The position numbers and the translations under genes were made by a program. A stretch of 64,000 nucleotides of DNA from contig CAVTMH010000003.1 of the NCBI GenBank assembly GCA_963735785.1, positions 613,708 through 677,707 of the forward strand, written 5' to 3'. Below the pieces are notes generated by a model that did not search any database, had not been told where the DNA came from, and saw only the letters and a list, made by a program, of their open reading frames with translations. This DNA comes from an uncultured Chloroflexia bacterium. Lineage in GTDB: Bacteria > Chloroflexota > Limnocylindria > Limnocylindrales > CSP1-4. This document shows positions 10,105 through 29,209 of this stretch, piece by piece (position 1 is the first letter of the stretch; each line of letters starts with the position of its first letter).

Positions 10105-10124
10105 CAGGAAGCCAGAGCACGGCC

Positions 10125-10868: not shown

Positions 10869-10885
10869 CCGATCGACGGCGGGCG

Positions 10886-11368: not shown

Positions 11369-11706
11369 CGGATTCTCCGGAGCGCAGGTCGTGGAGGGCT
11401 GATGCGTGTCTCGACGCGGCGCCACGACGGGCGGTTCCGTCAGTCACGCATCGGGAATGGCGCGCCGTGGCCCGGGACGACGACGTCGGCGGCGGCGAGC
11501 ACCCGCGCTCGCCCTCGCTCGCACGCCGCCAGGTCTGACGCGTAGGGGTCGATCCCAGAGCAGGTGGACGGTTGTCATGGCGCCGCAGTGTAGGGCCGCG
11601 CATGGCCACCCGACGCACCCGTGTCGCATCGGGCGCGATGTCCCGGCAGGGCTGCGACGTCGCTGGCAGACTCAGGCAGGCATCCATCCCTGACCGGAGG
11701 CCCGCC

Positions 11707-13365
11707 GTGACTGCGACGCCCGAGCACCCAGCCGATCTCGTCTTCCATGGCGGGCATGTCGTCACCATGGACCCGGCGCGGAGCTGGGCCAGCGGCATGG
11801 CGATACGTGACGGCCGGATCGTTGCCGTCGGCTCCGACCGCGAGGCGGCCGCGACCGTCGGTCCGTCGACACGGGTCATCGACCTGCGGGGCCGGACGGT
11901 CACCCCGGGCTTCCAGGACGCGCACGTGCATCCGGTCCACGGCGGGCTCGCACGCCTGCGTTGCGAGCTCCACGACACGCGCGGCCGCGAGGCATACCTC
12001 GCGGTCATCGCGGAGTACGCCCGAAGTCACCCGGACGAGGCATGGATCCGCGGCGGCGGCTGGTACATGGACGACTTCCCGGGCGGCACGCCTCGCCGCG
12101 AGGACCTCGACGCAATCGTGCCGGATCGGCCGATCTTCCTGCCGAACCGTGACGGTCACAGCGCCTGGGTGAACACGCGCGCGCTCGAGATCGGCGGCGT
12201 CACGGCTGACACGAGCGACCCGCCCGACGGGCGCATCGAGCGAGACGACCGTGGCCACCCGAGCGGGACGCTCCACGAGGGCGCCATGGGACTGGTCGAC
12301 CGCTTCGAGCCCGACGACACTGCGGCCGATCTCGAGGAGGCGCTGCGCATCGGCCAGGCCTACCTGCATTCGCTGGGCATCACGGCCTGGCAGGACGCCA
12401 TCGTCCGGCCCGAGACGGAGGAGCGCGCCTACGTCGCGCTCGCATCGCGGGATGAACTGACGGCCCGGGTCGTCGGGGCGATGTGGTGGGAGCACCACCG
12501 CGGCGAGGAGCAGATCGAGGAATTCGTCGAACGTCGCACGGCCACATCCATGGGTCGCTACCGGGCCATCAGCGTGAAGCTGATGATGGATGGTGTTCTC
12601 GAGAACTTCACCGGCGCCATGCTCGAGCCGTATGGCGATGGCCGCGGGGGCACGACCGAGAATCGTGGCCTGCTCCAGATCGACCCGGCGGGGCTCGCCA
12701 GCTGGGTGCCGCGCCTCGATGCGCTCGGCTTCCAGGCGCATTTCCACGCGATCGGCGATCGGGCGGTCCGGGCCTCGCTCGACGCCGTTTCTGCGGCGCG
12801 CGCGCAGAACGGCCCATCCGATACCCGCCCGCACATCGCGCATATCCAGGTGATCCACCCCGACGACATCGGCCGGTTCCGCGAGCTGGGTGTCGCGGCC
12901 AACGCGCAGCCCTACTGGGCCTGTCACGAAGGGCAGATGGACAACCTGACGATCCCGTTCCTTGGCGACCGGTGGCGCTGGCAATACCCGTTCCGCTCGC
13001 TGCGGGCGGCGGGCGCGGTCCTCGCGATGGGCTCGGACTGGAGCGTATCCACCCCGAACCCGCTGCTCGAGATGGAGCTGGCAGTCGAGCGCGTCGCCGA
13101 TGAGAGCCGCGGTATCCGCGATCCATTCCTGCCCGACGAGCGGCTGGATCTCGTGGACGCGCTGGCCGCCTTCACGGCCGGGTCCGCCTACGTCAACCAC
13201 CTCGACACCGAGACCGGGACGCTCGAGGTCGGCAAGGCGGCGGATCTCGCTGTCCTGGACCGCGACCTGTTCGATCGAGGCGCCGGCCCGATCGGGGACA
13301 CCAGGGTGGTCGGCACGTTCGTCGACGGCGCGTCCGTGTACGAGGAGCCCGCCCTCGAGGGCTGA
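11707..13365 (+). CDS. Amidohydrolase family protein (Amidohydro_3, metal-dependent hydrolase)
   Basis: HGGHVVTMDP…AIRDGRIVAVG…TPGFQDAHVHPVHGG… and the C-terminal GSDW…P motif. GTG at 11707 follows GGAGG by 7 nt. Alternative upstream ATG at 11638. Confidence 0.75.
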   Translation: MTATPEHPADLVFHGGHVVTMDPARSWASGMAIRDGRIVAVGSDREAAATVGPSTRVIDLRGRTVTPGFQDAHVHPVHGGLARLRCELHDTRGREAYLAVIAEYARSHPDEAWIRGGGWYMDDFPGGTPRREDLDAIVPDRPIFLPNRDGHSAWVNTRALEIGGVTADTSDPPDGRIERDDRGHPSGTLHEGAMGLVDRFEPDDTAADLEEALRIGQAYLHSLGITAWQDAIVRPETEERAYVALASRDELTARVVGAMWWEHHRGEEQIEEFVERRTATSMGRYRAISVKLMMDGVLENFTGAMLEPYGDGRGGTTENRGLLQIDPAGLASWVPRLDALGFQAHFHAIGDRAVRASLDAVSAARAQNGPSDTRPHIAHIQVIHPDDIGRFRELGVAANAQPYWACHEGQMDNLTIPFLGDRWRWQYPFRSLRAAGAVLAMGSDWSVSTPNPLLEMELAVERVADESRGIRDPFLPDERLDLVDALAAFTAGSAYVNHLDTETGTLEVGKAADLAVLDRDLFDRGAGPIGDTRVVGTFVDGASVYEEPALEG

Positions 13366-13497
13366 GGGGTCCATCCGGGGCATGGACAGATGACGATGGT
13401 GTTTCGGCAACGGACGACGGTGGTCGCCGAACCCCGTTGGGGCGATGCTCCTGTTGCGCACCGGATGGACCGGGACGCAGAAAGGAGCGATCAAGCA

Positions 13498-13707
13498 ATG
13501 AACTCGTATTCGATCCTCATCGTCAACGAGCACATCCAGTATCTGCTCGACGAGGCGGCGGCTCACCGCGCGGCCAAGGTCGAGAAGCCCGGACTGTTCG
13601 AGCGGATCGCTTCCGCTGCATCCTCGGTCAAGGCGGCGATCGACGCCCCTGCCGACTACAGCCGCTCGATCCTTCCGCCGCTCCACGACTATCCGTACCG
13701 GAGCTGA
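13498..13707 (+). CDS. Hypothetical small protein (69 aa)
   Basis: ATG preceded by AAAGGAG. MNSYSILIVNEHIQYLLDEAAAHRAAKVEK…. No recognised family. Confidence 0.4.
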   Translation: MNSYSILIVNEHIQYLLDEAAAHRAAKVEKPGLFERIASAASSVKAAIDAPADYSRSILPPLHDYPYRS

Positions 13708-13750
13708 GGCTTCCTCCCCTCGGTTTCGCCGACCTCCCTCCCAAACGCGA

Positions 13751-13780
13751 ACGACCCCCGGATCCTCCTCCGGGGGTCGT
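13751..13780. terminator. Bidirectional intrinsic-terminator-like hairpin between convergent genes
   Basis: ACGACCCCCGGA-TCCTCC-TCCGGGGGTCGT. Perfect 12-bp GC-rich stem with a 6-nt loop, between the 13498..13707(+) and 13805..14092(-) genes. Confidence 0.55.
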
Positions 13781-13804
13781 CGTGTGTCCCCAGCCTGGGA
13801 ACCG

Positions 13805-14092
13805 TCAGTCGCGCTCGCCGCGCAGCCGACGCATCTCCCGCTGGATCTCCGCCTCGCGCCGCGCGTCGTTGACGCCGTAGACCGTCCACCAGTGCGCGAC
13901 GAGCCCGATCCCCCACCCGATCGAGGCGAAGGCCGGCCATGGCACGCCCGGCGTGCGATCGGTCGTGAACCAGATGGCCCAGAGGAACCCGTTCACGAGC
14001 ACGTAGATCAACAGGTGGATGCGGAAGTCCTCGCGGGCCTTGACGCGTCCTTCGGCCCGGGCGCGCAGGTCGTCGTCGGATGTCGTCGTCAT
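13805..14092 (-). CDS. 2TM domain-containing protein
   Basis: REDFRIHLLIYVLVNGFLWAIWFTT…GWGIGLVAHWW matches the characteristic 2TM domain architecture. Confidence 0.7.
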   Translation of the reverse strand: MTTTSDDDLRARAEGRVKAREDFRIHLLIYVLVNGFLWAIWFTTDRTPGVPWPAFASIGWGIGLVAHWWTVYGVNDARREAEIQREMRRLRGERD

Positions 14093-14131
14093 GGCATCGC
14101 CTCCGATCGTAGTGTCGTCCCGACCACCGTA

Positions 14132-14722
14132 CTACGCTGGCTCCAGGTCCCCTGGCGTGTCGATGTCGTGGAGCGTCGCCGCGCCGGGATCGTCGCGCCG
14201 CCATGACGCCTCTGGGACGACGTGCGCGGCAAGGGCCTCGGGCAGGGCGCGAAACCGCCGCTCACCCCTATCCAGAAGCTCCCGCGCGGCCACCTCGCCG
14301 CGCCGGCGATCCAGCGCGAGCGGCAACGGCTGCGGGTCGCCCTCGCTCCCCAGGACCGCGGCCGCGTGTCCCGAAACGATCGCCCCCACCAGGCGCTCGA
14401 GCACCGCCGGCACGAGCGACGGCATGTCCCCAGCGACGACCATCACCCGCTCGATCCCTGGATCGAGGGCCGCGAGACCCGCCACGACGCCCACGAGCGG
14501 GCCGTCGAAGGCCGCGGGATCGTGGGCGATGCGGACGCCGTCGGGCACCGTCGGCTCGACGCCCGGACCGGTGACGACGACGACGTCTGTCGCCACGACA
14601 CACACCGCGGCGATGGCGTGATCGAGTAGCGGTCGGCCGTCGATCAACTCGGCCAACTTGTCCCGACCAAACCTCGTCGAGCGGCCCCCCGCGAGCACGA
14701 TCGCCCCAGTCCGCTCGGTCAC
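14132..14722 (-). CDS. mobA: Molybdenum cofactor guanylyltransferase
   Basis: [23 protein letters not shown]…VVAGDMP motifs. GTG start overlaps the selB stop (GTGA). The longer track ORF (to 15007) is an N-terminal extension overlapping selB. Confidence 0.8.
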   Translation of the reverse strand: MTERTGAIVLAGGRSTRFGRDKLAELIDGRPLLDHAIAAVCVVATDVVVVTGPGVEPTVPDGVRIAHDPAAFDGPLVGVVAGLAALDPGIERVMVVAGDMPSLVPAVLERLVGAIVSGHAAAVLGSEGDPQPLPLALDRRRGEVAARELLDRGERRFRALPEALAAHVVPEASWRRDDPGAATLHDIDTPGDLEPA

Positions 14723-16506
14723 GGCACGGCCTCGGTCCGGCGTGGAGCCCTCGAGCCGGGAACATGGCCGTTTGGCGTGCGTCGCAGGATGGCCCGCCGG
14801 TCGAGGTCCTCCAGGATCGCCAGCACGTACTTGCGGCTGGTGCCGGTCGCGTCGCGGTAGGCCGCCGGTGTCAGGGGCTCGCGGGCGGCCATCGAGAGCG
14901 CCGTGGCCGTGAGATCTCGGTATGCGGACATCTCGTATGCGAGATCCGGCTCCAGGACGACGATCCGAGCGGCCCGCTCCAGCGCCCGAACCCCAGCCGG
15001 CGGGCACCCCGCGACCCGGGCGGCATCGGCGAGCGGGGGTGGGGCCGGGACCGCAAGCAGTGCCTCGAGGCGGTCCATGGCCGCGGCCAGTCCGGGGTCG
15101 ACGATCCTCCCCGCAGATCCTGGGTGGCGGAGGGTGTCGCCGTCCCGGACGAGGCGGCCGTCCGCCACCAGGCCCTCGATCACCGGCCCTGCCGCCGCCA
15201 AGGCCCGGTCTCGGCGGATGGTCACAGCGCGACGGAGCGTGGCTGCCACGACCGAGCGCACCTGGCCGAGCGTCGCCTCGTCCTTGACGACGGTGAGCGC
15301 ACCGGCCGCCGCCAGCTCGCGAACGTCGGGGGCGAGGACGGTCCGGCCCCCGTCGGCGATGGCGCCATGCAACGCGAGCCGCGCGCCGGGGTCGCGACCC
15401 GCCGCCGCGAGCATCGCGACACGCGCCGCCGTCTGACGCCGCCGCGAGATCCCCCGCGGGGGCGCCACGTCCAGGACGACCCCGCCGACGGGGAGCACCG
15501 CCGAGCCCCGTCGCAGGACGAAGCGATCACCGGGAGCCAGGGCGATGGGCGCGCCGAGTCGGACGATCCCGGCGGGCGTCCCGTCCGGCAGCTCCAGGGC
15601 GTCGCGCCCGGCCCGACCGACCGAGGCTTCCGCAGCGGCCGTGCCCGCGTGGAACCTGGCGCGGGTTCGGTCCGCGAGCGGCCCGCCGAACGCGACGAGT
15701 GCCCGGTCCGTGGCATGCACGAGCGGATCGTTGGTGAGCGCCAATCCCCGATGCAGCTCCCCGATATCGACACCGGCGAGGTTCAGCGCCGTGCGCCCGC
15801 CTCCCTGGACGCGATCGACGGCCCCGCCGTGGACCTGGATCTCGCGGATCCGGACGACCCGGTCGCCGGGGACCAGTCGAAGCGTGTCGCCACGGTCGAG
15901 CGAGCCGCCCCGGAGGGTGCCGGTGACGACAGCGCCACGGCCCTTCAGCGAGAACACCCGGTCGATGGCAAGCGTCGGCGGGCGTGCGGGCGGCCGATGC
16001 CCGGCGACCAGCGCCAGGATCGCGGCACGGACGGCGTCCACGCCTTCCCCGGTCAGAGCGGAGGCGGCGAGGACCGGGGAGCCGGCAAGGGACGTCGGCG
16101 CGAGGAGGTCGGCCACGGCCGCGACGACGGCAGCGACCCGCTCCGGATCAACGGCGTCGATCTTGGTGACGACCGCGAGACCGAAGCCGACGCCGAGGGC
16201 ATCGAGCAGCGCCAGGTGCTCGAGCGTCTGTGCGCGAGGGCCATCGTCGGCGGCCACGACGAGCATCACCGCGTCGATCTCGCCGGCGCCGACGAGCATG
16301 TTCCCGACCAGCTTGTCGTGGCCCGGCACGTCGACGAAGTCGATCGCCTGTCCGTCGTCGAGCGTGAGATGCGCGTAGCCGACGTCGATGGTCATCCCGC
16401 GCCGGCGCTCCTCCGGCAACCGGTCAGCGTCGATCCCGGTCAGTGCTTGCAGCAGCGTGGTCTTGCCGTGGTCGATATGGCCCGCGGTGCCGACGACGAT
16501 GGTCAC
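14719..16506 (-). CDS. selB: Selenocysteine-specific translation elongation factor
   Basis: G-domain [11 protein letters not shown]…DVPGH…TKID. Long C-terminal winged-helix extension. Position is between selA and mobA. Confidence 0.85.
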
Positions 16507-17885
16507 GCCGCGCCGCCGAGCACCCGCTCGATCGTCCGCGCGAGGGCGTCATCCGACTGCGGATCGACGGTTCGGAGGTCCAGCACGACCCGCCCATCCT
16601 CGATCCGGCCGATCACAGGCGGATCCTCGCGCCGGAGAGCGGCGAGCACACCCACGGCTGAGGGCCCGCTCAGGCGCAGCCCGACCGACGGCAGGGTCTC
16701 CCCGGGCAGCGAGCCCCCTCCGACGGTCGATCGCAGGTCGACCATCTCGACCGCGCCGCCGACGCGCGCGCAAAGCCGTTCAGCCCGCTCGCGGAGCGCG
16801 TCCGGTGTCGTCGCGATCATCTGCCAGACCGGGATGTCCGTCGTGGCGCGGCCGGCCCGATAGAGCCCGAGGGTCAACGCCACACCGGCCATCGTCACCT
16901 TGTCCGGTCGCATCGCCCGGGCGAGTGGATCGCGTCGCATCCTGGCGACGAGGGTCGAGCGGCCCACCACGAGGCCCGCCTGTGGCCCGCCGACCAGCTT
17001 GTCGCCGCTGAACGTGACGACATCGGAGCCGGCGCCCAGACGCTCGGACGGCATAGGCTCGTGGGCGAGGCCGAAGGCCGTCGTGTCGAGCAGCGCCCCG
17101 GAGCCCAGGTCGTCGATGACGATGGCGTCGTGACGGTGCGCGAGGTCGGCGACGGCAGCCGGGTCGGGGCTCTCGGTGAAGCCGGACATCGTGAAATTGG
17201 ACTGGTGGACGCGAAGTACGGCGCGGGCACGGCCCTCCGCGAGCGGCGCCTCGAAGTCGTCGGCGCGGGTCCGATTGGTCGTCCCGACCTCGATCAGCTT
17301 CGCACCGGCGCGACGCACGATATCCGGGATCCGCACGCCGCCGCCGATCTCGACGAGCTCCCCGCGCGAGACGACCACGCCCCCGCGACCCGCCAGACCC
17401 ACGGCGAGGGCGAGCGCCGCCGCGTTGTTGTTCGTGACGAGGGCATCCTCGGCGCCGGTCAGCGCGACGAGGTGGTCCTCGGCGATGCGTGCCCGCGCCC
17501 CGCGCCGACCCGTTTCGCGGTCGAGCTCGAGCAGCATCGCCTGTGTCGCCAGCGCGGCGGCCGACTCCGCGGCGGCGGGCGGCCAGGGCGCGCGACCCAG
17601 GTTCGTGTGGACGATGACGCCCGTCGCGTTGATGACGGCTGGCGGCGCCGCACCGACCTGCCCGGCGAATGCGTCGAGTCGATCCAGCACCGAGGTGGCC
17701 AAGCGGTCCAGGTCCGGCGGCACCGAGCCGTCCGAGCGCAGGCGTTCGCGCTCGGCATTCACGACCTCTCGCGCCACGGCGACGACCGCCCCGGCCTCTC
17801 GCGGACCCGGCAGCCGATCGCGCACGCGCGCGAGCACGTGCTCGACGCTGGGCGGGCGCGGCCGGGCGGCCGGCTTCGACGACAT
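16503..17885 (-). CDS. selA: L-seryl-tRNA(Sec) selenium transferase
   Basis: SelA signatures including [17 protein letters not shown] and [13 protein letters not shown] (PLP lysine). ATG at 17885 lies 20 nt downstream of tRNA-Sec. The track ORF extension to 17984 overlaps the tRNA and is rejected. Confidence 0.85.
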
Positions 17886-17905
17886 CGTTCCTCCATCGCG
17901 ACGCG

Positions 17906-18002
17906 TGGCGGGAGCGCGTGGGAGTCGAACCCACCGAGCCACGCCGAGCGCGGCGCCACCGGTTTTGAAGACCGGGGGACCCACCGGGACCCCTCCGCTC
18001 CC
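17906..18002 (-). tRNA. selC: tRNA-Sec (anticodon UCA)
   Basis: Reverse strand reads GGGAGCGGAGGGGTCCCGGTGGGTCCCCCGGTCTTCAAAACCGG…GGTTCGACTCCCACGCGCTCCCGCCA. It has a long acceptor stem, anticodon loop CU-UCA-AA, long variable arm, T-arm GGTTCGACTCC and encoded CCA. Confidence 0.85.
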
Positions 18003-18066
18003 ACGCTCGATGGTAGCGCGGGCGCGGCCGACGGCCCGCGGCCGACGGCGGACCTATCATCGCGGC

Positions 18067-19128
18067 ATGACCACGCTCGACGCCGCGCCGCCGCTTCGCC
18101 TGACCACGATGACCGGCTGCGGCGGATGTGCGGCGAAGCTCGGGGCGGACCTGCTGGCGGACGCCTTGTCCGGCCTTCGCGCGGAGGCAGCGGGGGTCGA
18201 TGCGGACGGCGCGCTCATCGCCGGCCTCGCGCCGCCCGACGATGGCGTGGCCTATCGGGTCAGCGACGACCTCGCGATCATCGGCACGCTCGACTTCTTT
18301 CCGCCGCTCGTCGACGATCCTCGGACGTTCGGGGAGATCGCCGCGGCCAACGCCCTGAGCGACGTGTTCGCGATGGGCGGCCGGGTGCTGTTCGCCCTGT
18401 CGATCGCGGCATTCCCCGAGGAGCTGCCGCGGGACGTGCTGGCCGCGATCTTCGACGGGGCGTCATCGAAGGTCCGCGAAGCCGGGGGCACGCTGGCCGG
18501 CGGTCATACGATCCGCGACCCGGAGCCCAAGTACGGACTCGCGGTCGTCGGGGCAGCGCACCCGGACAAGCTCCTGCGCAAGGGAGGCGCGGTGCCGGGT
18601 GACGTCCTCGTGCTCACGAAGCGGCTCGGGACCGGGGTCCTCGTCTCGGGCTCGCGGCAGGGCCGGACGAGTGCCGCGGATCTGGTGACGGCCATCGACG
18701 GGATGCGGACGCTCAACCGGGCGGCCTCGGAGGTATTCGTCGCGGCAGGCATCCGAGGGGCCACCGACGTCACGGGCTTCGGCCTGCTCGGGCACGGCCT
18801 CGAGATGGCCCGGACGTCGGACACCCGGTTCGTCTTCGACGCGGATTCCCTGCCGGCACTGCCGGGTGCGCTGGAACTGGCCGCGGCCGGCGTGGAGACC
18901 GGCGGGGCGGCGCACAACCGGCGCTTTGTGGCGGCGGCCCTGGAGGTCGCGCACGAGGTGAACCCGGCGCTGGTCACGTTGGCGCACGATCCGCAGACGA
19001 GCGGCGGGCTGCTCGCGGCCGTCGCGGCTGATCGGCACGAGACCGTGGACCTCGCGCTCGCGGATGCCGGTATCGAGCGGCACTGGATCGGACGGGTCGA
19101 CGCCGGCGCGGGCGTCGCACTGCGGTGA
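18067..19128 (+). CDS. selD: Selenide, water dikinase (Cys-type)
   Basis: MTTLDAAPPLRLTTMTGCGGCAAK (Cys at the catalytic position) and a downstream AIR-synthase-like fold (GGHTIRDPEPKYGLAVVG). The track ORF starting at 17176 is a spurious extension across tRNA-Sec. Confidence 0.85.
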   Translation: MTTLDAAPPLRLTTMTGCGGCAAKLGADLLADALSGLRAEAAGVDADGALIAGLAPPDDGVAYRVSDDLAIIGTLDFFPPLVDDPRTFGEIAAANALSDVFAMGGRVLFALSIAAFPEELPRDVLAAIFDGASSKVREAGGTLAGGHTIRDPEPKYGLAVVGAAHPDKLLRKGGAVPGDVLVLTKRLGTGVLVSGSRQGRTSAADLVTAIDGMRTLNRAASEVFVAAGIRGATDVTGFGLLGHGLEMARTSDTRFVFDADSLPALPGALELAAAGVETGGAAHNRRFVAAALEVAHEVNPALVTLAHDPQTSGGLLAAVAADRHETVDLALADAGIERHWIGRVDAGAGVALR

Positions 19129-19925: not shown

Positions 19926-19984
19926 CTCCCGCACGGCCACCCGGCGCTACACTCCGTGGTAAACCCCCGCAGGAGGCCACCTGA

Positions 19985-21898
19985 GTGGCGAAACCCTACG
20001 TTCGACTGACCCAGCCGCTCGTGCGTGACACGAAGGGCGGCGAGCTGCGTCCCGCGACCTGGGACGAGGCGCTCGATCGCGTGGTCGAAGGGTTCGCGGC
20101 CGCCAAGGCGGCCCACGGCCCGACGACCTTCGGCACCTTCAGCTGCAGCAAGGCGACCAACGAGGTCAACTTCGCGGCCCAGAAGTTCAGCCGAGCGGTC
20201 CTGGGCAGCAACAACATCGACAGCTGCAACCGGACCTGACACGCCCCGAGCGTCGCCGGTCTGGCGACCGTGTTCGGTGCCGGTGGCGGCACAAGTTCAT
20301 ATCGTGAGGCAGAGGACACCGATCTGATCGTCCTGTGGGGCAGCAACGCCCGCGAGACGCATCCGATCTTCTTCCATCACGTCCTCAAGGCCGTCCACAA
20401 GGGCGCCCGCCTCTATGCGATCGATCCACGGCGGACGTCCAGCGCGGAGTGGGCCGACAGCTGGCTCGGGCTCGATGTCGGGTCGGACATCGCCCTCGCG
20501 AACGCCATGGCCCGCGAGATCATCGCCGCCGGCCTCGAGAACCGCGACTTCATCGAGCGAGCGACGGTCGACTTCGACGCCTACAAGGCCAAGGTCGAGA
20601 GCTACACGCTCGAATACGCGGAGGGGGAGACCGGCGTCCCGGCCGAGGCCATCCGGGAGCTCGCCCACGCCTTCGCACAGGCGCCGCGCGCGATGATCTG
20701 CTGGACCCTGGGGATCACCGAGCACCACAATGCGGTCGACAACGTCCTCGCGCTCATCTCGCTGGTCCTCCTGACCGGGCATGTCGGGCGCTACGGCAGC
20801 GGCGTCAATCCGTTGCGTGGCCAGAACAACGTCCAGGGTGGCGGCGACATGGGCGCTCTGCCGGACCGGCTGCCCGGGTTCCAGCACGTCGAGAACGACG
20901 AGCTGCGGGCCAAGTTCGATGCGGCCTGGGGGGTCAAGGTCCCGCCTCAACGCGGCTGGCACCTGTCGGGGATGTTCGACGCGATGGAGCGCGGCGACCT
21001 GACCGCTGTCTACTGCATCGGGGAGAACCCGGTCCAGTCGGAGGCGGACCAGAAACGCGCGATCCGCCTGCTCGAGGGGCTCGAGCTGCTCGTCGTGCAG
21101 GACCTGTTCCTGACCAGGACCGCCGAGCTCGCCGACGTCGTGCTGCCGGCCAGCGCGGCCTGGGCCGAAGGGGAAGGCACCGTCACCAACTCCGAGCGCC
21201 GCGTGCAGCGGGTGCGCGCGGCCGTTGCTCCGCCGCCGGGCGCCCGAGACGACCTGGCGATCATCTTCGAGCTCGCCAACCGCATGGGCGCCGACTGGGG
21301 CGAGGCGAACGCCGAGGGGGTCTGGGACGAGGTCCGCAGCCTCTCGCCGGTCCACGCCGGGATGAGCTACCGCCGCCTCGAGGAGCTCGGCGGGATCCAG
21401 TGGCCGTGTTACGACGACGACCACCCGGGCGAGCTGTTCCTGCATTCGCGGCTCTGGGAGGATCCGGTCCCGGGCAATCGCGTCCCGTTCGTGCCGGTCG
21501 ACCACGACCCACCGGTCGACAAGCTCACGACCGAATACCCCATCCGGCTCACGACCGGCCGGCGGCTGGACTCGTACAACACCGGCGTCCAGAGCGCCGG
21601 CTACACGTCGCCGCTGCGTCGTGGCGAGTCGCTCGACATCTCGCCGGAGGACCTGGCCTCCTACGGCCTGGCCGACGGGGAGCGGGTCCGCGTCATCTCG
21701 CGCCGTGGCGAGGTGGAGGTGCCGGTACGGCTCGATGGATCGCTGCGACCCGGGCTGACGTTCATGACCCTGCACTTCCAGGACGACGTGGCGACGAACC
21801 TCCTGACGATCGATGCGACCGACCCGAAGTCGGGCACGGCCGAATTCAAGGCCACGGCCATCCGGATCGAGAAGCTCGGGGCGCCTGTCCCGGCCTGA
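19985..21898 (+). CDS. fdhA: Formate dehydrogenase catalytic (molybdopterin, MopB) subunit, selenocysteine-containing, lacking the N-terminal [4Fe-4S] domain
   Basis: Track ORFs 19985..20239 and 20270..21898 are in the same frame, separated only by TGA at 20237-20239. Across the TGA the protein reads …NIDSCNRT-U-HAPSVAGLATVFGAGGG…, the canonical FdhF/FdnG C-x-R-x-U-H Sec motif. The remainder is a MopB domain. The protein begins at the equivalent of FdhF residue ~60, so the CxxCxxxC cluster domain is absent. Confidence 0.8.
20247..20275 (+). promoter_or_regulatory. SECIS-like hairpin immediately 3' of the UGA-Sec codon
   Basis: 12 nt after TGA: GTCGCC-GGTCT-GGCGAC (20252-20268). A 6-bp GC stem with apical loop GGUCU. 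As I recall the E. coli fdhF SECIS, its apical loop is GGUC-containing as well. Confidence 0.6.
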
Positions 21899-21909
21899 GG
21901 AGGATCACG

Positions 21910-22851
21910 ATGGCGACGGCACTGTCGGCGTTCCACGTAACCCGCGAGCAGTTCCACCTCGCGTGGGATCCGGCGATCCCCCCGATCGCCACGGTCGTCT
22001 CGGGCAGCACGGTCACGTTCGACTGCCTCGACGCGAGCGGCGGGCAGCTGACGGCGACATCGACACTCGACGACCTCGCCCGCCTCGACTTCGATCGCGT
22101 CGACCAGGTGAACGGGCCCATCGCGGTCGAGGGCGCCGAGACCGGCGACACCCTGCAGGTCGACCTGCTGGACTTCCGACCCGCCGATTGGGGCTGGACA
22201 GCGAGTATCCCTGGGTTCGGACTGCTCGCCGACGAATTCCCGGATCCCGCGCTGCGCATCACGCCGCTGCCGTCGGTGGGCAGCCGCGCCGAGTTCCTGC
22301 CGGGCATCCGGCTGCCGATCATCCCGTTCTGCGGCGAGGTCGGTGTGGCGCCGGCAGACGGGCCGCGCTCCACGATCCCACCGGACGTCCATGGCGGGAA
22401 CATGGACACCCGCCACCTGACCGCGGGCGCTACGTTGTTCCTGCCGGTATTCCACGACGGCGCGCGCCTGAGCGTCGGAGATGGCCACGCCGCGCAGGGC
22501 GACGGCGAGGTGTGCGGGACGGCGATCGAGACCCCGATGCACGCGACGCTCCGGCTGACCGTCCGCAAGGACCTGCACCTGACGGCGCCCGAGTTCCTGA
22601 CGGCACCCGGAGACGCGGCCGAGCGCCCCGTCGGCCGACGGTACGCGACCGACGGGGTCGGGCCCGACCTGATGACGGCGGCTCGGGATGCCACCCGCCG
22701 GATGATCGACTGGCTCGGCCGTGAGCACGGCCTCGCGCCGATCGATGCCTACCTGCTGTCCAGCGTCGCCGTCGATCTACGGATCAGCGAGATCGTGGAC
22801 ATGCCGAATGTCATCGTCACCGCCCACTGTCCGCTGGCGATCTTCGACTGA
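21910..22851 (+). CDS. Formamidase / acetamidase family amidohydrolase (FmdA_AmdA)
   Basis: ATG 9 nt after GAGGAGG. Sequence (…GPIAVEGAETGDTLQVDLLD…HGGNMDTRHLTAGATLFLPV…GDGHAAQGDGEV…) resembles the acetamidase/formamidase family as I recall it. The 838-aa track ORF 20335..22851 is an alternate-frame artefact. Confidence 0.7.
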   Translation: MATALSAFHVTREQFHLAWDPAIPPIATVVSGSTVTFDCLDASGGQLTATSTLDDLARLDFDRVDQVNGPIAVEGAETGDTLQVDLLDFRPADWGWTASIPGFGLLADEFPDPALRITPLPSVGSRAEFLPGIRLPIIPFCGEVGVAPADGPRSTIPPDVHGGNMDTRHLTAGATLFLPVFHDGARLSVGDGHAAQGDGEVCGTAIETPMHATLRLTVRKDLHLTAPEFLTAPGDAAERPVGRRYATDGVGPDLMTAARDATRRMIDWLGREHGLAPIDAYLLSSVAVDLRISEIVDMPNVIVTAHCPLAIFD

Positions 22852-22861
22852 TCCTCGCGGA

Positions 22862-24337
22862 TCAGCCGTCAGTCATCACGTCGCCGACACGCGTCAGGGC
22901 GTCCGGGGTCCGGCTCCTGACCACGAAGTAGGCGACGACCCCGATGATCATCCAGATCAGGACGAGCAGCGGGACGATGTCGAAGGGCTGGGCGAGCGGA
23001 TCGAGATCGATGTCGAGGATCGGGATCGTCAGGCCGCCGAGGACGCCGAGGAACGCGGGGATCAGCAGCACGATGCCGAGGATGGGTACCACGAGGTGCT
23101 TGATGGGCGAGAAGTCCTCCCTCCGTTCGCCCATGTAGAACCCGATGACTGCGAGGTTGACCGCGACGTACATGCCGGCAAACAGCAGGCCGAGGGCATA
23201 CCCGATCCAGACGTAGGTCGTGAGCGGGCCACCCAGCGGCTGGCCCTGGAAGACGAGCCCGAGTACGACCGCAAGCCCGATTCCGAGGATGCCCTGGAAA
23301 TGGACGGCATTCATCGGCGTCCGGTAGGTCTCATGGATGACGGCGAACCAGCGCGGCAGCAGGCGCACGCGGCCCAGGGAGAAGATCACCCGGGTCGAGG
23401 CGTTCGCACCGGCGCTTGCGTTGGCGAGGCAGCTGTTGAGGATCGCGAAGATCACGAGCAGTCCGCCGATGCCGGGCAGGACCTCGTTCGCCATCCCGCT
23501 CCAGGGATCGCCATCGTTGAACGCGAGGAAGTCGCCCATCCGTTCCGGTCCGAAGTAGACGGTCGCCGCGTACATGTTGAACGCGTAGAACAGGCCGATG
23601 AGGACCGCCGACAGGAGGACCGCCCGACGGATGGTGCGCTTCGGGTCGCGGGTCTCCTCGGCCAGCGGTGCCGCTGCCTCGAAGCCGACAAAGGCGAGCA
23701 GGCAGAACACCATGCCCTGCAACGCGGGCTTGAAACCGTCCGCGCCCGGGGTGAACACCGAGAGCGTGTTCCTGTCGCCGGCATTCACGATGAGCAGGAA
23801 CGACACCAGCAGGAAGATGCCGATCTCGATCAGGCCGAGGGCGACGCCCACACGCGTCGACAGTGAGATGCCGCGATACACGAGCCACCACACGAGCAGG
23901 CCGCAGCCGACCGCGAGCGGCAGCCACAACAGGTCGTTCGAGAACCCCGTCAGCGTCGTGATCAGGGATGCGCCGAACAACCCGAACGCCGCGAACAGTG
24001 CCGCCGGGACGACGGGCTCGGCGAGCAGGAACGCCCACGCCATCAGCCATCCCGCGAACGAACCGAGACCGCGGGCAACGTACGTGTACATGCCACCCGC
24101 CGATGGCAGGTAGCGCGCAAGCTCCCCGATCGAATAGGCCGTGAACACGGCCGCGACGAGGGCGAGCACGACGGCGAGGGGCGCGTTGCCGGCGGCGAAG
24201 ATCGTGGCGGCCCCGATCGAGAGGGCCGTCGCGACCGCCGGCGCCATGTGCGTGATCGACTGGAACAGGACCTCGGTGAGGCCGATGGCCCCACGTTCGA
24301 GGGTTTGACCGCCAGGGTCGGACGCAGACGAGGACAT
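22862..24337 (-). CDS. APC superfamily amino acid/amide permease
   Basis: 12 predicted TM helices. Start MSSSASDPGG at 24337 is preceded by GGAGGAG. Confidence 0.75.
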   Translation of the reverse strand: MSSSASDPGGQTLERGAIGLTEVLFQSITHMAPAVATALSIGAATIFAAGNAPLAVVLALVAAVFTAYSIGELARYLPSAGGMYTYVARGLGSFAGWLMAWAFLLAEPVVPAALFAAFGLFGASLITTLTGFSNDLLWLPLAVGCGLLVWWLVYRGISLSTRVGVALGLIEIGIFLLVSFLLIVNAGDRNTLSVFTPGADGFKPALQGMVFCLLAFVGFEAAAPLAEETRDPKRTIRRAVLLSAVLIGLFYAFNMYAATVYFGPERMGDFLAFNDGDPWSGMANEVLPGIGGLLVIFAILNSCLANASAGANASTRVIFSLGRVRLLPRWFAVIHETYRTPMNAVHFQGILGIGLAVVLGLVFQGQPLGGPLTTYVWIGYALGLLFAGMYVAVNLAVIGFYMGERREDFSPIKHLVVPILGIVLLIPAFLGVLGGLTIPILDIDLDPLAQPFDIVPLLVLIWMIIGVVAYFVVRSRTPDALTRVGDVMTDG

Positions 24338-24500
24338 GACTCCTCCCTCTCCACCGGCGTGCACCGCGCGGCCACCCCTCCGCCCTCCGGGCACGCGTCA
24401 GGTGCATCCTACGGCGCAACCGAGTCACTGGAGCTGCGGAATCGCAGCGAACCGACGGGCAGGCGTAGAGTCTGTCGGGCCACGCGAAGAGAGGTCGCTG

Positions 24501-25358
24501 ATGGGATCCGAGGCGCGACCAGGATCGACGGTCGACGGGTCGACGGCGCAGGACGACGCCGCGCCGGACGAGGCGCCGGGCCTGGCCGCGCCGATCGTTT
24601 CGGATCCGCAGTGGCGGGCCATCCTGGAGGGCACCGCCGGCGGGTTCGGCTCCGGACGGCGGATCCTTCGACACATCCCGAGCTCACCGCGCTGCAAGCT
24701 CTGTGCGGCGCCCTTCGCCGGGCTCGGGGGGCGGGCGATGCGGCTGATCGATCGCGGCCCCTGGGAAAAGAATCCGACCATCTGCGGCTTCTGCTTCAAG
24801 GAGCTGGAGCGCGACCGCGGCGGCGCCGAGATCACCCTCACGCTGCTGTTCGCCGATATCCGTGGCTCGACGACGCTGGCTGAATCGATGGAGCCGGGGG
24901 CCTTCCACGGGCTGATGGGCCGCTTCTACCACGAGGTGACCGAGGTCCTCGTCGCGCACGATGCCGTCGTCGACAAGTTCGTCGGTGACGAGGTCGTGGC
25001 CCTCTTCATCCCCGCCCTCACCGGGGAAGGGCACGCCGGTCGCGCGGTGCAGGCCGCGCGCGAGCTGCTCCGGGTGACGGGTCATGCCGGTCCCGGGAAT
25101 CCATGGGCCCCGCTCGGGATCGGCATCCACACGGGTCAGGCCTATGTCGGTACGATCGGCGATGCCGTGACCGACTTCACCGCGCTCGGCGACACCGTGA
25201 ACGTCACCGCGAGACTGGCCTCGGCCGCCGCCGCGGGCGAGATCCTTGTCAGCGCCGACGCGTCGGCGCTCGCGGGCCTCGAATCCGATCTCGAAGCACG
25301 CAACCTGACCCTTCGGGGGCGACAGCAACCGCTCGACGTCCGCGTCATCCGAATCTGA
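24501..25358 (+). CDS. Adenylate/guanylate cyclase (class III) domain protein with N-terminal Cys4 zinc-ribbon-like motif
   Basis: C-terminal LTLLFADIRGSTTLAE…FVGDEVVALF…TGQAYVGTIGD cyclase motifs. N-terminal CKLC…CGFC. Confidence 0.7.
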   Translation: MGSEARPGSTVDGSTAQDDAAPDEAPGLAAPIVSDPQWRAILEGTAGGFGSGRRILRHIPSSPRCKLCAAPFAGLGGRAMRLIDRGPWEKNPTICGFCFKELERDRGGAEITLTLLFADIRGSTTLAESMEPGAFHGLMGRFYHEVTEVLVAHDAVVDKFVGDEVVALFIPALTGEGHAGRAVQAARELLRVTGHAGPGNPWAPLGIGIHTGQAYVGTIGDAVTDFTALGDTVNVTARLASAAAAGEILVSADASALAGLESDLEARNLTLRGRQQPLDVRVIRI

Positions 25359-25388
25359 CGCGGGCCCGCATCGCTACACTCGACGGCG

Positions 25389-27236
25389 ATGGACCTGCAT
25401 GTCATCGGGCCGCTCGCCTCCCCCGCCGAGCGCGCAGCGGTCGATGCCGTCCTCGGGCCTCCGGAGTCGGGCTGGGTCGGTGGTGCTCGACGACCGGGGA
25501 TCGATGGCCACGCTGCCCGCGGCGGCCACGCCCTCCGGGCCAGGCGTTCACAGCTGCTGCCGGCCCTCCACGCCGTCCAGGACCGGATCGGCTGGATCAG
25601 CCAGCCCGCGCTCAACTACATCTCGCGGCGTCTGGCCGTGCCACCCGCGGAGGCGTACGGCGTCGCGACGTTCTACGCCCTGTACTCGACGACGCCCAGG
25701 CCGCCGGTCGTCGCCCATGTCTGCGACGACATCGCCTGCCGGCTCGCCGGGGCGGAGCGGATCTGCGCGGACGTCGAGCGTTCGGTCGGGCGGGCAGATG
25801 AGGCCGCACGTGACGGCGAGGTCGGCTGGCTTCGCTCGCCGTGCCTGGGACTGTGCGACTTGGCCCCCGCGGCGATGATCACCAGGGCTGGGGACACGGC
25901 TACAGCGGTGACCGCGGCGCCCGTGGACGCGGCGGGGATCGTCGCACGTCTCGACGGGACCACGGTCACGCGTCCGGCCGTGCCGGCACGGCAGGCCGGC
26001 GACCCGTCGCTCCGGCTGCTCCGGCGAGTCGGCGTCGTCGACCCATCGTCTCTCGATGACTACCGTTCCGGCGGCGGCTATGCCGGCCTTGCCAGGGCCA
26101 TCGAGATCGGAGCGGACGCGGTCATCGGCGAGGTGACGGCGTCGAAGCTCATGGGTCGCGGCGGCGCGGCCTTCCCGACAGGCCGCAAGTGGGCGGCTGT
26201 CGCATCCCAGCCCGCCCGGCCGCACTACCTCGTCTGCAACGCCGACGAATCGGAACCTGGCACCTTCAAGGACCGGGTCCTCCTCGAGGGCGACCCATTC
26301 GCGATCGTGGAGGCGATGACGATCGCCGCGTTCGCGACCGGCGCGGCGCAGGGATACATCTACATCCGCGGGGAGTACCCCGAGGCCGAGGAACGCATGA
26401 GCAACGCGATCTCGACCGCGCGGGACGCCGGTCTCCTTGGACCCGACATCCACGGGTCAGGGTTCGCGTTCGACATCGAATTGCGACGTGGCGCCGGGGC
26501 CTACATCTGCGGCGAGGAGACGGCGCTCTTCGAATCGATCGAGGGCAAGCGCGGCGAGCCGCGCAACAAGCCACCGTTCCCGGTCGAGGTCGGGCTCTTC
26601 GGCAAGCCCACGGTCGTCAACAACGTCGAGACGCTCGCCAACATCCCGCTCATCCTCGAGATGGGTGGCGAGGCCTATGCACGGATCGGCACGGAGGACT
26701 CGACCGGGCCGCGGCTGTTCTGCCTGTCCGGCCACGTCGAGCGGCCCGGCGTCTACGAGGTCGAGTTCGGCGCGACCCTGCGCGACCTCATCGAGCTCGC
26801 CGGTGGCGTGAGCGGTGGTCGCGGCATCCGGGCGATCCTGCTCGGCGGGGCGGCCGGGGTCTTCGTCGGGCCGGACGCCCTCGACATGCCCCTCACGTTC
26901 GAGGCGACCCGGGCCGCCGGCGCGACGCTCGGGTCGGGCGTGATCATGGTCTTCGACGAGAGCGTCGACCTCGTCGACACGCTCCGGCGCATCGCCCAGT
27001 TCTTCCGCGACGAGTCGTGCGGCCAGTGCGTGCCCTGTCGGGTCGGGAGCGTGCGCCAGGAAGAGTTGCTCGCCCGTCTCGCGGCCGGCTCGGGTGTGCG
27101 GTCGCGGGACGAGGAGATGGTCCTGCTCCGGGACATCGGCCAGGTCATGCGTGACGCATCGATCTGTGGCCTCGGCCAGACGGCGTCGTCGGCGATCGAG
27201 TCCGCTCTGCGGCAGCCGGAGCTGGTGGCGCTGTGA
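25389..27236 (+). CDS. NADH:quinone oxidoreductase subunits E+F fused (NuoE-like [2Fe-2S] thioredoxin-like domain + NuoF-like NAD/FMN/[4Fe-4S] domain); likely diaphorase module of an NAD-linked formate dehydrogenase
   Basis: N-terminal LLPALHAVQDRIGWISQPALNYISRRLAVPPAEAYGVATFYALY…HVCDDIAC (NuoE/HoxF-N). C-terminal GRGGAAFPTGRKW…LVCNADESEPGTFKDR…ESCGQCVPCR…ICGLGQTA (NuoF). Confidence 0.8.
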   Translation: MDLHVIGPLASPAERAAVDAVLGPPESGWVGGARRPGIDGHAARGGHALRARRSQLLPALHAVQDRIGWISQPALNYISRRLAVPPAEAYGVATFYALYSTTPRPPVVAHVCDDIACRLAGAERICADVERSVGRADEAARDGEVGWLRSPCLGLCDLAPAAMITRAGDTATAVTAAPVDAAGIVARLDGTTVTRPAVPARQAGDPSLRLLRRVGVVDPSSLDDYRSGGGYAGLARAIEIGADAVIGEVTASKLMGRGGAAFPTGRKWAAVASQPARPHYLVCNADESEPGTFKDRVLLEGDPFAIVEAMTIAAFATGAAQGYIYIRGEYPEAEERMSNAISTARDAGLLGPDIHGSGFAFDIELRRGAGAYICGEETALFESIEGKRGEPRNKPPFPVEVGLFGKPTVVNNVETLANIPLILEMGGEAYARIGTEDSTGPRLFCLSGHVERPGVYEVEFGATLRDLIELAGGVSGGRGIRAILLGGAAGVFVGPDALDMPLTFEATRAAGATLGSGVIMVFDESVDLVDTLRRIAQFFRDESCGQCVPCRVGSVRQEELLARLAAGSGVRSRDEEMVLLRDIGQVMRDASICGLGQTASSAIESALRQPELVAL

Positions 27237-28333
27237 GCGAGGACACGCGGGGCCTGTCCATGAGCCGCGACCCCGCTCCGGACCCACACACCCCGCACGG
27301 CGGCCAGGCGCCGGCCGCCCAACCGCTGACGGAGATCATCCTGCGCCCGCCCGCGCGGCCGTCGCGCCCGCCAGCGCCACCGCACGTCGACGCGCCGCCG
27401 GACATCGAGCTCTCGATCGACGGCGTCTCGGTGGTCGTCCCCGAAGGCACGACGATCCTAGGCGCGTGCCGACAGCAGGGTGTCGACACGCCGACGCTCT
27501 GCTACGCGGACAACCTCGCGCCGGTCAACGTCTGCCGCGTCTGTGTCGTCGAGGTGACCGGGTCACGCGTCCTGGTGCCCGCCTGCTCGCGCAAGGTCGA
27601 GGCCGGGATGGAGGTGCAGACCGACTCGGAGCGCGTCCGCCTGTCGCGCAAGGTCGTGCTCGAGTTCCTGGGCTCCTCGGTCGACGTGTCGCTCGCTGGT
27701 CCCGCGGTGCCGGACGGGACGATCCACTCGTACATGCGGCGGTACGGCGCGGACCCGGCCCGGTATGGGCCGCCGGCCCCACCAGCCGCAGCCGGCGAGC
27801 GGGACGACCGGACTCCCGGACACCATCACGTCCCCGAGGGAGCCGCCGTGGCTGCCACCGTCGCCCAGCCCACCAAGATCGACAACGACCTGTACGTCCG
27901 CGACTACTCGAAGTGCATCCTCTGCTACAAGTGCGTCGAGGCGTGCGGTGAGGATGCCCAGAACACCTTTGCGATCGCGGTCGCCGGGCGCGGCTTCGAT
28001 GCCCGTATCTCGACCGAGCAGGCCGTGCCATTGCCCGAGTCGGCGTGCGTCTACTGCGGCAACTGCATCGGCGTGTGCCCGACCGGCGCGCTGATGGCCA
28101 AGCCCGAATACGACATGCGCGAGGCGGGCACGTGGGACGAGTCGACCCAGACCGTGACCTCGACCATCTGCCCGTACTGTGGCGTCGGGTGCGTGCTGGA
28201 CCTCCACGTCCAGGACGACCGCATCCTGAAGGTGACGTCCCCGCTGGACTCGTCCGTGACGGACGGCCACCTCTGCGTGAAGGGCCGCTTCGGCTTCGAG
28301 TTCGTGAACGAGCGCCCCAAGCCCGGGGCCTGA
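27233..28333 (+). CDS. NuoG-N-terminal-like Fe-S protein ([2Fe-2S] ferredoxin + 2x[4Fe-4S] + MopB-type N-terminal [4Fe-4S] domain) without molybdopterin domain; probable Fe-S partner of the split fdhA
   Basis: GTG overlaps the preceding stop (GTGA). CYADNLAPVNVCRVCVVEV…C (2Fe-2S). CILCYKCVEAC and CVYCGNCIGVCP (ferredoxin clusters). C-terminal CPYCGVGCVLDLHV…GHLCVKGRFGFEFVN is the equivalent of the first ~55 residues of FdhF/FdsA missing from fdhA. Ends directly after this domain. Confidence 0.75.
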   Translation: MSEDTRGLSMSRDPAPDPHTPHGGQAPAAQPLTEIILRPPARPSRPPAPPHVDAPPDIELSIDGVSVVVPEGTTILGACRQQGVDTPTLCYADNLAPVNVCRVCVVEVTGSRVLVPACSRKVEAGMEVQTDSERVRLSRKVVLEFLGSSVDVSLAGPAVPDGTIHSYMRRYGADPARYGPPAPPAAAGERDDRTPGHHHVPEGAAVAATVAQPTKIDNDLYVRDYSKCILCYKCVEACGEDAQNTFAIAVAGRGFDARISTEQAVPLPESACVYCGNCIGVCPTGALMAKPEYDMREAGTWDESTQTVTSTICPYCGVGCVLDLHVQDDRILKVTSPLDSSVTDGHLCVKGRFGFEFVNERPKPGA

Positions 28334-28342
28334 TCCGCGGGT

Positions 28343-29209
28343 TCAGCTCCAGCCGGTCAGGTCGTGCAGGTCGATCCGGCGGTCGTGGCTGTAGACGTTG
28401 AACCCGTCGCCGCGGAGGAAACCGACCAGCGTGACCCCGAGCCGCTCTGCGGTCTCGATCGCGAGGTCCGACGGGGCCGAAACGGCGCACACGATCGGGA
28501 CGCCGGCGACCGCCGCCTTCTGCACGATCTCGAAGCTGACCCTCCCTGAGACCATGAGGATCCGGTCGTGCAGCGGCAACGCGCCGGCGAACAGCTGCGA
28601 CCCGACCAGCTTGTCGAGCGCGTTGTGCCGCCCGACGTCCTCGCGGATCTCGATGAGTTCGCCGCGCGGGGTGAACAGCGCGGCGGCGTGGAGCCCACCA
28701 GTCTCGTCGAACGCCCGTTGTGCCACGCGCAGCAAGTCCGGCAGGGCCAGGACCACCGTCCGTGCGACGACCGGCCCATCCGGCAGCGGCTCGCAGCGCA
28801 CGGCGACCTCGTCGATCGACGCCTTGCCGCAGATCCCGCACGACGCCGTCGCCACGAAATGGCGCTCCGCCACCGAGGACGCGTCGAAGGGGCGCGTGAG
28901 GCGGACGACGATCGTGTCGTCCGGCTGGTTCAACGCGGCGGGATCGCCGCCCTCGGTCGAGGCCACGTCGTCGCGTCCGTCGATCAGGCCCTCCGTGCGC
29001 ATGAATCCGACCGCGAGCTCGGCCTCGTGACCAGGAGTCCGCATCGTCACCGCCACGGCCACGGGCTCCTCGTCCGGCCCGGCGGCCCGGATCTCGAGTG
29101 GCGCCTCCCCGACGATCCGGTCCGGACGGACTTCGAGCGTCTCCCCGCGCACGGTCACGACGGAGCGGGTGGCGATGTGGCGTGTCGGGGGAGCGCTCGT
29201 GTCGTGCAC
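28343..29209 (-). CDS. fdhD: Formate dehydrogenase accessory sulfurtransferase
   Basis: SCGICGKASIDE and GRHNALDKLVG FdhD signatures. Confidence 0.85.
   Translation of the reverse strand: MHDTSAPPTRHIATRSVVTVRGETLEVRPDRIVGEAPLEIRAAGPDEEPVAVAVTMRTPGHEAELAVGFMRTEGLIDGRDDVASTEGGDPAALNQPDDTIVVRLTRPFDASSVAERHFVATASCGICGKASIDEVAVRCEPLPDGPVVARTVVLALPDLLRVAQRAFDETGGLHAAALFTPRGELIEIREDVGRHNALDKLVGSQLFAGALPLHDRILMVSGRVSFEIVQKAAVAGVPIVCAVSAPSDLAIETAERLGVTLVGFLRGDGFNVYSHDRRIDLHDLTGWS

Follow-up and report, generated by a model that had tools for sequence, protein, structure and literature searches.

A formate dehydrogenase alpha subunit encoded by two separate genes in an uncultured Limnocylindria bacterium, with its FS0 domain probably supplied in trans

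In the solved formate dehydrogenases (FDHs) and nitrate reductases matched by our searches, one polypeptide bears both the molybdopterin domains and the proximal [4Fe-4S] domain known as FS0. A 64-kb stretch of contig CAVTMH010000003.1 from an uncultured Limnocylindria bacterium (hereafter the window, meaning the whole stretch analyzed) departs from this arrangement. The window encodes a selenocysteine (Sec)-containing molybdopterin catalytic subunit without FS0 (FdhA) and, 5.3 kb apart from it, an iron–sulfur (Fe-S) subunit that ends with FS0 (NuoGN); a flavoprotein gene, nuoEF, lies between them. We give a probability of roughly three in four to the reading that FdhA, NuoEF, and NuoGN are the three subunits of an NAD(P)-linked Sec-FDH in which FS0 is provided in trans.

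The two genes and the boundary between them

The catalytic gene fdhA (19985..21898, + strand) encodes 637 aa, matched in Pfam by PF00384 (residues 7–433, E = 2.2e-69) and PF01568 (residues 521–624, E = 1.9e-25) alone. A scan of the whole product gave no match to PF04879, and its five cysteines (residues 54, 81, 239, 344, and 475) are dispersed and form no CxxCxxxC motif. By itself, FdhA is predicted to be unable to bind the cluster. The gene starts at GTG 19985, with AGGAGG at 19971–19976, 8 nt 5′ of the start. An in-frame TGA stop (19982–19984) stands directly 5′ of this codon, inside the intergenic spacer that follows an α/β-hydrolase gene ending at 19925. Aligned to Escherichia coli FdhF, FdhA begins at FdhF residue 61 and spans residues 61–688.

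The counterpart gene nuoGN (27233..28333, + strand) encodes a NuoG-N/HoxU-like protein of 366 aa with Fer2_4 (residues 58–132), two Fer4 domains (~222–287), and a terminal Molybdop_Fe4S4 domain (PF04879, residues 307–359, E = 2.3e-18), beyond which the chain continues for only seven residues. This FS0 segment (28151..28309, + strand) carries C313, C316, C320, C348, and K350. In an alignment of 55 homologues with identities as low as 37%, 16 cysteines of NuoGN are invariant and account for four clusters: a [2Fe-2S] cluster (C90/101/104/118), two [4Fe-4S] clusters (C228/231/234/238 and C272/275/278/282), and FS0 (C313/316/320/348). Lys350, two residues past the final FS0 cysteine, is present in at least 90% of these sequences; its counterpart in FdhF connects FS0 to the pterin.

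Set against the NCBIfam model TIGR01591 (672 positions), the two proteins adjoin: NuoGN residues 311–362 cover positions 1–52, and FdhA residues 7–628 cover positions 53–672. FdhA scores 646 bits, under the curated cutoff of 666.25, and the 54 bits absent from it are located on NuoGN residues 311–362. The alignment to Rhodobacter capsulatus FdsA (RcFdsA; 6tg9_A) places NuoGN on residues 7–304 and FdhA on residues 308–936. In the window, NuoGN ends with ...CVKGRFGFEFVNERPKPGA(stop) and FdhA opens with VAKPYVRLTQPLVR...; compared with fused relatives, this junction has no residue lost or duplicated, and the α subunit is split exactly between the FS0 segment and the first molybdopterin domain. 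A sequence-only reading of the locus had placed the start of fdhA near FdhF residue 60, found no CxxCxxxC [4Fe-4S] domain in its product, assigned that domain to the C terminus of the 27233..28333 product, and put the break at a domain boundary. The domain searches on both proteins, together with the alignments, bear out each of these points.

In-frame read-through between the halves, which that reading had named as a check, is ruled out by gene order and strand layout, as are frameshift and trans-splicing. Because the molybdopterin (MopB) part lies upstream of the FS0 part and nuoGN ends at a TGA stop facing the convergent fdhD gene (28343..29209, − strand) 9 nt off, no read-through can link them.

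Conservation of the split and of its gene order

A GTDB scan with one genome per species confirmed at least 536 matches among 600 candidate stretches, and the locus analysis covers the best 80 of them. By the labels of the metagenome-assembled genomes (MAGs), these loci belong to Chloroflexota (Limnocylindria), Actinomycetota (~15), Acidobacteriota (~10), Planctomycetota (5), and a few others; binning errors are suspected behind the labels Saccharimonadales (L001), Binatia (L018), and Verrucomicrobiia (L049). The NuoGN reading frame stops 14–45 residues past the CxKGR motif in 79 of the 80 species genomes, and the stop after FS0, together with an FS0-less fdhA start, recurs at 63–86% identity in at least four phyla. 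No CxxCxxxC occurs in the in-frame upstream extension of any fdhA with a readable 5′ region. In the sole exception, L031 (10001..13450), the NuoGN frame continues for 820 codons past FS0; this tail is Arg/Gly-rich and looks out of frame, and a long-read indel is suspected.

Protein searches gave the same architecture. With the window NuoGN as query, all 120 of the 90%-identity clusters among the matches listed are 341–485 aa long and 79–97% identical, with PF04879 last and PF00384 in none. A planctomycete family member as query yielded 120 further such clusters among the matches listed, at 321–392 aa. A search of 50%-identity representatives returned mostly metagenomic fragments and says little on the depth of the split clade. 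Judged from these comparisons, the split is conserved, widespread, and old, and not peculiar to the window genome; the synteny comparison proposed at the outset likewise found it conserved and apparently under selection across related genomes. The fdhA, nuoEF, and nuoGN products are 59–78% identical between Chloroflexota, Actinomycetota, Acidobacteriota, Planctomycetota, and one proteobacterial MAG (L039–L080 versus the window), a pattern suggestive of the three-gene cassette having spread horizontally across phyla.

Among fused relatives, the nearest, which emerged from the search of 50%-identity representatives, are Sec-type, share at most ~43% identity in the Fe-S half, and still have PF10588 (NADH-G_4Fe-4S_3; e.g., P0259), to which NuoGN gives no match. 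Since gene callers stop at UGA, such relatives are listed as proteins of ~360–440 aa. P0241, P0243, P0259, and P0267, all in this size range, were considered as further independent splits and rejected: They end in ...C-A-R-x, directly ahead of Sec, where gene callers have truncated fused Sec-type FdsA genes (compare L083–L085). The fdhA genes of the split family are themselves cut at the UGA, into products of 84–87 aa and 539–542 aa (L081, L082), and artefacts of this kind can mislead domain-architecture surveys. One Limnocylindrales locus, L064, carries a canonical fused FdsA-type cluster (9517..15515, − strand; fdhD, fused α, NuoF-like) a few kilobases from its split fdhA–nuoEF–nuoGN set, with both architectures in one genome.

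An alternative is that fdhA and nuoGN are decaying fdsA remnants, or that they are artefacts of assembly or annotation, and that a functional FDH lies elsewhere. Its support comes from the cutting of fdhA at the UGA (84 aa + 542 aa in L081 and L082), the NuoG-N proteins that end just before Sec, and the fused cluster of L064 besides its split set. The break, however, falls at a position different from the UGA, and both window genes are intact open reading frames (ORFs) with proper starts. The same stop and FS0-less start appear across at least four phyla, in 79 of the 80 species genomes, with invariant ligands, and the 64-kb window contains no second FDH gene and no full-length FdsA, whose presence elsewhere the sequence-only reading had listed as counting against the fission. 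We regard decay or artefact as very improbable.

Every locus with sufficient flanking sequence has the order fdhA–nuoEF–nuoGN, and fdhA was found in ~57 of the 60 loci that extend 10 kb upstream. Outside Limnocylindria, the fdhA–nuoEF gap is mostly 6–100 nt and reaches 224 nt in one locus, with L082 as an example of the compact three-gene operon; two Chloroflexia-labeled loci have a gap of ~3 kb. The same junction in Limnocylindria holds 0.05–7 kb of unrelated genes that vary by genome (L005–L072), among them membrane proteins, a methyltransferase, a subtilisin-like protease, cation antiporters, a Phd/PIN toxin–antitoxin pair, and a serine dehydratase. The window carries a formamidase/permease/cyclase insert in common with the 97%-identical L081, and L003 is collinear here. 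Four genes had been counted between the halves, and all four are present in the window, but this holds for its lineage only; elsewhere nuoEF alone separates the halves. By this comparison, the genes intervening at the fdhA–nuoEF junction are secondary and lineage-specific, having invaded repeatedly in Limnocylindria.

Constant across loci is the position of nuoEF between the two halves, with the C-terminal half first. The canonical order is fdsGBACD, that is, NuoE, NuoF, and α (PMC7171172), relative to which C-half/nuoEF/N-half reads as a circular permutation of nuoE–nuoF–fdsA. The simplest route to it, we infer, would be a tandem duplication, G-B-[N-C]-G-B-[N-C], with both ends then lost to leave C-G-B-N.

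Proposed enzyme, alternatives, and known systems

The active site of FdhA is well marked. A UGA codon (20237..20239, + strand) specifies residue 85 and is followed by His86; in the alignment, U85–H86 stands opposite Sec140–His141 of FdhF (X in 1aa6_A), and the Arg motif NPLRGQNNVQG stands opposite NPVRGQNNVQG. Every related locus with a readable site (61/61) has TGA as its catalytic codon, within the context CNRT*HAPSV. Fifteen nucleotides after the UGA, both minimum-free-energy and centroid folds contain a hairpin (20252..20268, + strand; GUCGCC-GGUCU-GGCGAC) like a Sec insertion sequence (SECIS). Its fold energy is unexceptional (z = −0.87), it is kept across phyla with G-U and compensatory variants, and its GGUC loop presumably resembles that of the E. 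coli fdhF SECIS. The features expected of a bacterial selenoprotein are thus all present: the catalytic position is an in-frame UGA, a hairpin lies downstream of it, and tRNA-Sec, SelA, and SelD are encoded.

The third gene, nuoEF (25389..27236, + strand), encodes a 615-aa fusion of a [2Fe-2S] thioredoxin-like domain with a NuoF module that binds flavin mononucleotide (FMN) and NAD(P) and carries a [4Fe-4S] cluster (PF01257, PF01512, SLBB, PF10589). Its stop overlaps the GTG start of nuoGN (GTGA). Ligands are present for the NuoE-type [2Fe-2S] cluster (C112/117/152/156) and the NuoF [4Fe-4S] cluster (C544/547/550/593), as are the flavin/nucleotide motifs GRGGAAFPTGRKW and ADESEPGTFKDR; the best solved relatives are 9bov_B and Cupriavidus necator FdsB (6vw7_B).

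We propose that these three genes encode one soluble cytoplasmic Sec- and Mo/W-dependent FDH related to FdsABG and NuoEFG; homology and gene context point to the physical complex, the electron path, and the NAD(P) specificity. A trans-assembled NAD-dependent FDH of these three parts had been suggested by the sequence-only reading, which the present results support. The ancestral α subunit would have been a single polypeptide of NuoG-N Fe-S domains, FS0, and MopB, and FS0 would have been retained by the electron-transfer half, NuoGN, after the split. The catalytic half, FdhA, would bind bis-MGD (the bis form of molybdopterin guanine dinucleotide) and carry Sec85, His86, and the conserved Arg. 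In an FdhA/NuoEF/NuoGN heterotrimer, the C-terminal FS0 segment of NuoGN would dock on FdhA where FdhF and FdsA have the same segment. Electrons would pass from formate through Mo/W-bisMGD (Sec) to FS0 (C313/316/320/348, with K350), then through the two ferredoxin-type [4Fe-4S] clusters to the NuoGN [2Fe-2S] cluster (C90/101/104/118), and onward through the NuoF-type [4Fe-4S] cluster and FMN to NAD(P)+. FdhD would mature the Mo site, and the adjacent selA, tRNA-Sec, and selD genes would supply Sec. Domain I of FdhF comprises residues 1–60 plus two later segments; with the domain built in this way, the split would require it to be completed across the interface, and the partners would be obligate.

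All ligands for the chain from Mo/Sec to FMN are conserved, and the His-ligated cluster A4 is the only one lost relative to the R. capsulatus enzyme. The A4 ligands of RcFdsA are His117/Cys121/124/130, and in the cryo-electron microscopy structure A4 lies outside the bis-MGD-to-FMN pathway, at the FdsA–FdsA dimer interface (PMC7171172). These ligands are swapped out in NuoGN (SSVDVS... in the alignment to 6tg9_A) and family-wide. In their place, residues 195–199 (nt 27815..27829) form a conserved P-G-H-H-H motif in an otherwise variable segment, and GHHH, EHH, or HHQ occurs in all 12 phylum-spanning NuoGN sequences inspected; the motif could be a metal site.

A trans-assembled enzyme might also be something other than simply NAD(P)-linked, either electron-bifurcating (like Bfu or HylABC–FdhF2) or the input module of a larger membrane complex. 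NuoEF scores about equally against the bifurcating HydB/NfnB flavoproteins and FdsB (387–400 bits), and NuoGN resembles HydA- as well as HoxU-type Fe-S modules. Bifurcating HydB-type subunits, however, require extra C-terminal ferredoxin-type clusters. NuoEF terminates at residue 615, just past PF10589 (531–609), with zero cysteines after C593, and no ferredoxin-like or membrane-subunit genes are conserved beside the operon. A simple NAD(P)-linked enzyme is favored because NuoEF ends after its NADH_4Fe-4S domain, without the extra clusters of bifurcating flavoproteins; we consider the bifurcating or membrane-linked variants improbable.

A different alternative takes the parts as separate enzymes: FdhA would be an FS0-less molybdoenzyme (like DorA, TorA, and BisC) with another partner, NuoEF–NuoGN would be an independent diaphorase or electron-input module, and the C-terminal FS0-like cluster of NuoGN would serve some other protein. 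Several MopB enzymes do work without FS0 (PMC10100899). Limnocylindria genomes repeatedly have unrelated genes, some on the opposite strand, between the parts, and no fdhA occurs within 8–10 kb upstream in L030, L031 (8 kb), and L059. FdhA nevertheless falls in the FdhF/FdsA clade, where every member has FS0, and outside the FS0-less clade. The Cys-x-Lys signature for cluster-to-pterin transfer is retained in NuoGN with no MopB in cis, and the genes form tight three-gene operons in Actinomycetota, Acidobacteriota, and Planctomycetota. On balance, separate enzymes seem a little less probable still than a bifurcating or membrane-linked assembly.

Several observations weigh against the trans-assembled NAD(P)-linked FDH or its derivation. 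The MopB half scores 471–484 bits against FdhF-type enzymes and 424–428 against FdsA; as it matches the FdhF type slightly better, a single FdsA-like origin for the two halves is not proven, and fission of one FdsA-like gene would simply be the simplest history. In the window, a permease gene on the opposite strand separates fdhA from nuoEF–nuoGN, and in most Limnocylindria the three genes are not one transcription unit; co-expression is therefore not guaranteed. The AlphaFold model of NuoGN (alone, from a 55-sequence alignment) has a mean predicted local distance difference test score of 63, falling below 50 at the C terminus, and is uninformative on docking.

Among known systems, FdsABG(D) (R. 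capsulatus 6TG9/6TGA; C. necator 6VW7) has the same cofactor chain, with a NuoE/NuoF-like diaphorase, NuoG-N/HoxU-like domains, FS0, an FdhF-like MopB module, and an FdhD/FdsC maturation factor. Its FdsA, however, is one 958-aa polypeptide with Cys at the active site, whereas the window system comprises two genes, cut at residue ~306, and uses Sec; NuoE and NuoF are separate there and fused here; the order fdsGBACD is replaced by MopB half, nuoEF, Fe-S half; and the A4 cluster of the FdsA dimer interface is lost. No FdsD was identified in the window, although no search aimed at it was made. Methylobacterium extorquens FDH1 (tungsten, α–β; 7E5Z/7VW6) is likewise soluble, with 7e5z_B matching NuoEF residues 222–608 and 7e5z_A matching both halves. 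Its β subunit is one chain of NuoE-like and NuoF-like parts. Its α subunit is a single chain of 989–995 aa (NuoG-N, FS0, MopB) with Cys, unlike the split, Sec-containing system of the window. We would place the family with the FdsABG/FDH1-like soluble NAD-linked FDHs, from which it deviates by its split α subunit, the absence of A4, and an FS0 that is not in cis.

FdhF (FDH-H; E. coli 1FDO; FdhF of the hydrogen-dependent CO2 reductase, 7QV7) gives the best matches to the MopB half, at the 471–484 bits cited above, and shares the Sec-His pair and Arg motif; it has its own FS0 (residues 1–60), ahead of the residue 61 at which the window FdhA starts, and passes electrons via HycB-type subunits. 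In the bifurcating HylABC–FdhF2 system of Gottschalkia (Clostridium) acidurici, NuoG-N/HydA-N-like and NuoEF-like subunits serve a separate Sec MopB protein. It is the closest precedent for a NuoG-N-like subunit with a separate FdhF, but FdhF2 keeps FS0, which FdhA is without. In the formylmethanofuran dehydrogenase FwdB/FwdD, the C-terminal Molydop_binding domain stands apart (FwdD) and FS0 stays on the catalytic chain. This pair, whose two polypeptides come together again, is the closest precedent for a split MopB unit; the window system instead splits off the N-terminal FS0, fused to an electron-transfer subunit. The Methanobacterium wolfeii formylmethanofuran dehydrogenase has been mentioned as a MopB unit split in two polypeptides (PMC7171172). 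Searches of the open-access literature, which took in a 2023 phylogeny of the MopB superfamily and a 2026 review of FDHs, found no report of an FDH whose FS0 lies on a separate or electron-transfer subunit, in line with the earlier remark that the organization is not the standard one.

If the assignment is right, FS0, normally treated as integral to the catalytic subunit, can come from another polypeptide, and this layout has persisted with success in lineages that are abundant in soil and freshwater and mostly uncultured (Limnocylindria, Actinomycetota, Acidobacteriota, and Planctomycetota). The family would offer a natural test case for assembly of the FS0–pterin junction and, for CO2-reduction engineering, a naturally modular FDH with its catalytic cartridge apart from the NAD(P)-linked wire. 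Capacity for formate oxidation is also easily missed or misassigned in metagenome surveys, because fdhA falls under the NCBIfam cutoff and is cut at the UGA, and because NuoGN goes under generic labels in databases (“2Fe-2S iron-sulfur cluster-binding protein,” “HndD,” “YjgC”). An exact look-up of the window protein matched no record, and cluster look-ups linked the family to no cultured, studied organism.

More speculatively, and in our estimate unlikely though well short of far-fetched, the split may be an adaptive redesign and not a neutral fission, with the Sec/Mo subunit as a separately matured, replaceable cartridge on a pre-built Fe-S/flavin wire. Domain I of a molybdoenzyme would then be completed only across a subunit interface, and bis-MGD insertion and FdhD sulfuration would proceed independently of Fe-S assembly. 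Where the UGA is not decoded, the product would be a harmless 84-aa peptide, whereas a fused enzyme would leave an Fe-S fragment of ~390 aa, potentially poisonous to NuoEF. Aerobic soil bacteria could swap out a damaged catalytic subunit, and universal Sec, loss of the dimer-interface cluster, and cross-phylum spread of the cassette at 60–75% identity would all be parts of the design.

Neighboring genes in the window

The window is ~70% G+C, for which reason spurious long ORFs are common in it, and genes were fixed by domain content. Upstream of fdhA lies a Sec island (16503..19128) of selA on the − strand (16503..17900; L-seryl-tRNA(Sec) selenium transferase, PF03841, E = 2.6e-113; 5′ end approximate), tRNA-Sec on the − strand (17906..18002; anticodon TCA, ARAGORN), and selD on the + strand (18067..19128; selenophosphate synthetase, TIGR00476, 329 bits versus a cutoff of 125; start ATG 18067 or 18109). 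In the relative L081, selA is upstream as well. Downstream, the convergent fdhD encodes the FDH sulfurtransferase/maturation factor (PF02634; NF001943, 271 bits versus a cutoff of 269) and is found in most related loci.

Two members of the lineage-specific insert are an APC-family amino-acid permease (22862..24394, − strand; PF00324, PF13520) and a nucleotide cyclase domain protein (~24501..25358, + strand; PF00211), whose start may be 24336 or 24402 and whose homologue in L081 has 286 aa. The third is an acetamidase/formamidase (21910..22851, + strand; PF03069, E = 4.3e-65) that begins 12 nt past the fdhA stop with its own GAGGAGG ribosome-binding site and is present in L081 too. ORF 21813..22724 (+ strand, 303 aa, ATG), which in an ORF list could readily pass for the formamidase, has no Pfam, NCBIfam, or PDB match and is spurious; it runs in a different frame, overlapping both the formamidase gene and the end of fdhA. 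Hydrolysis of formamide by the formamidase product would supply formate straight to the FDH.

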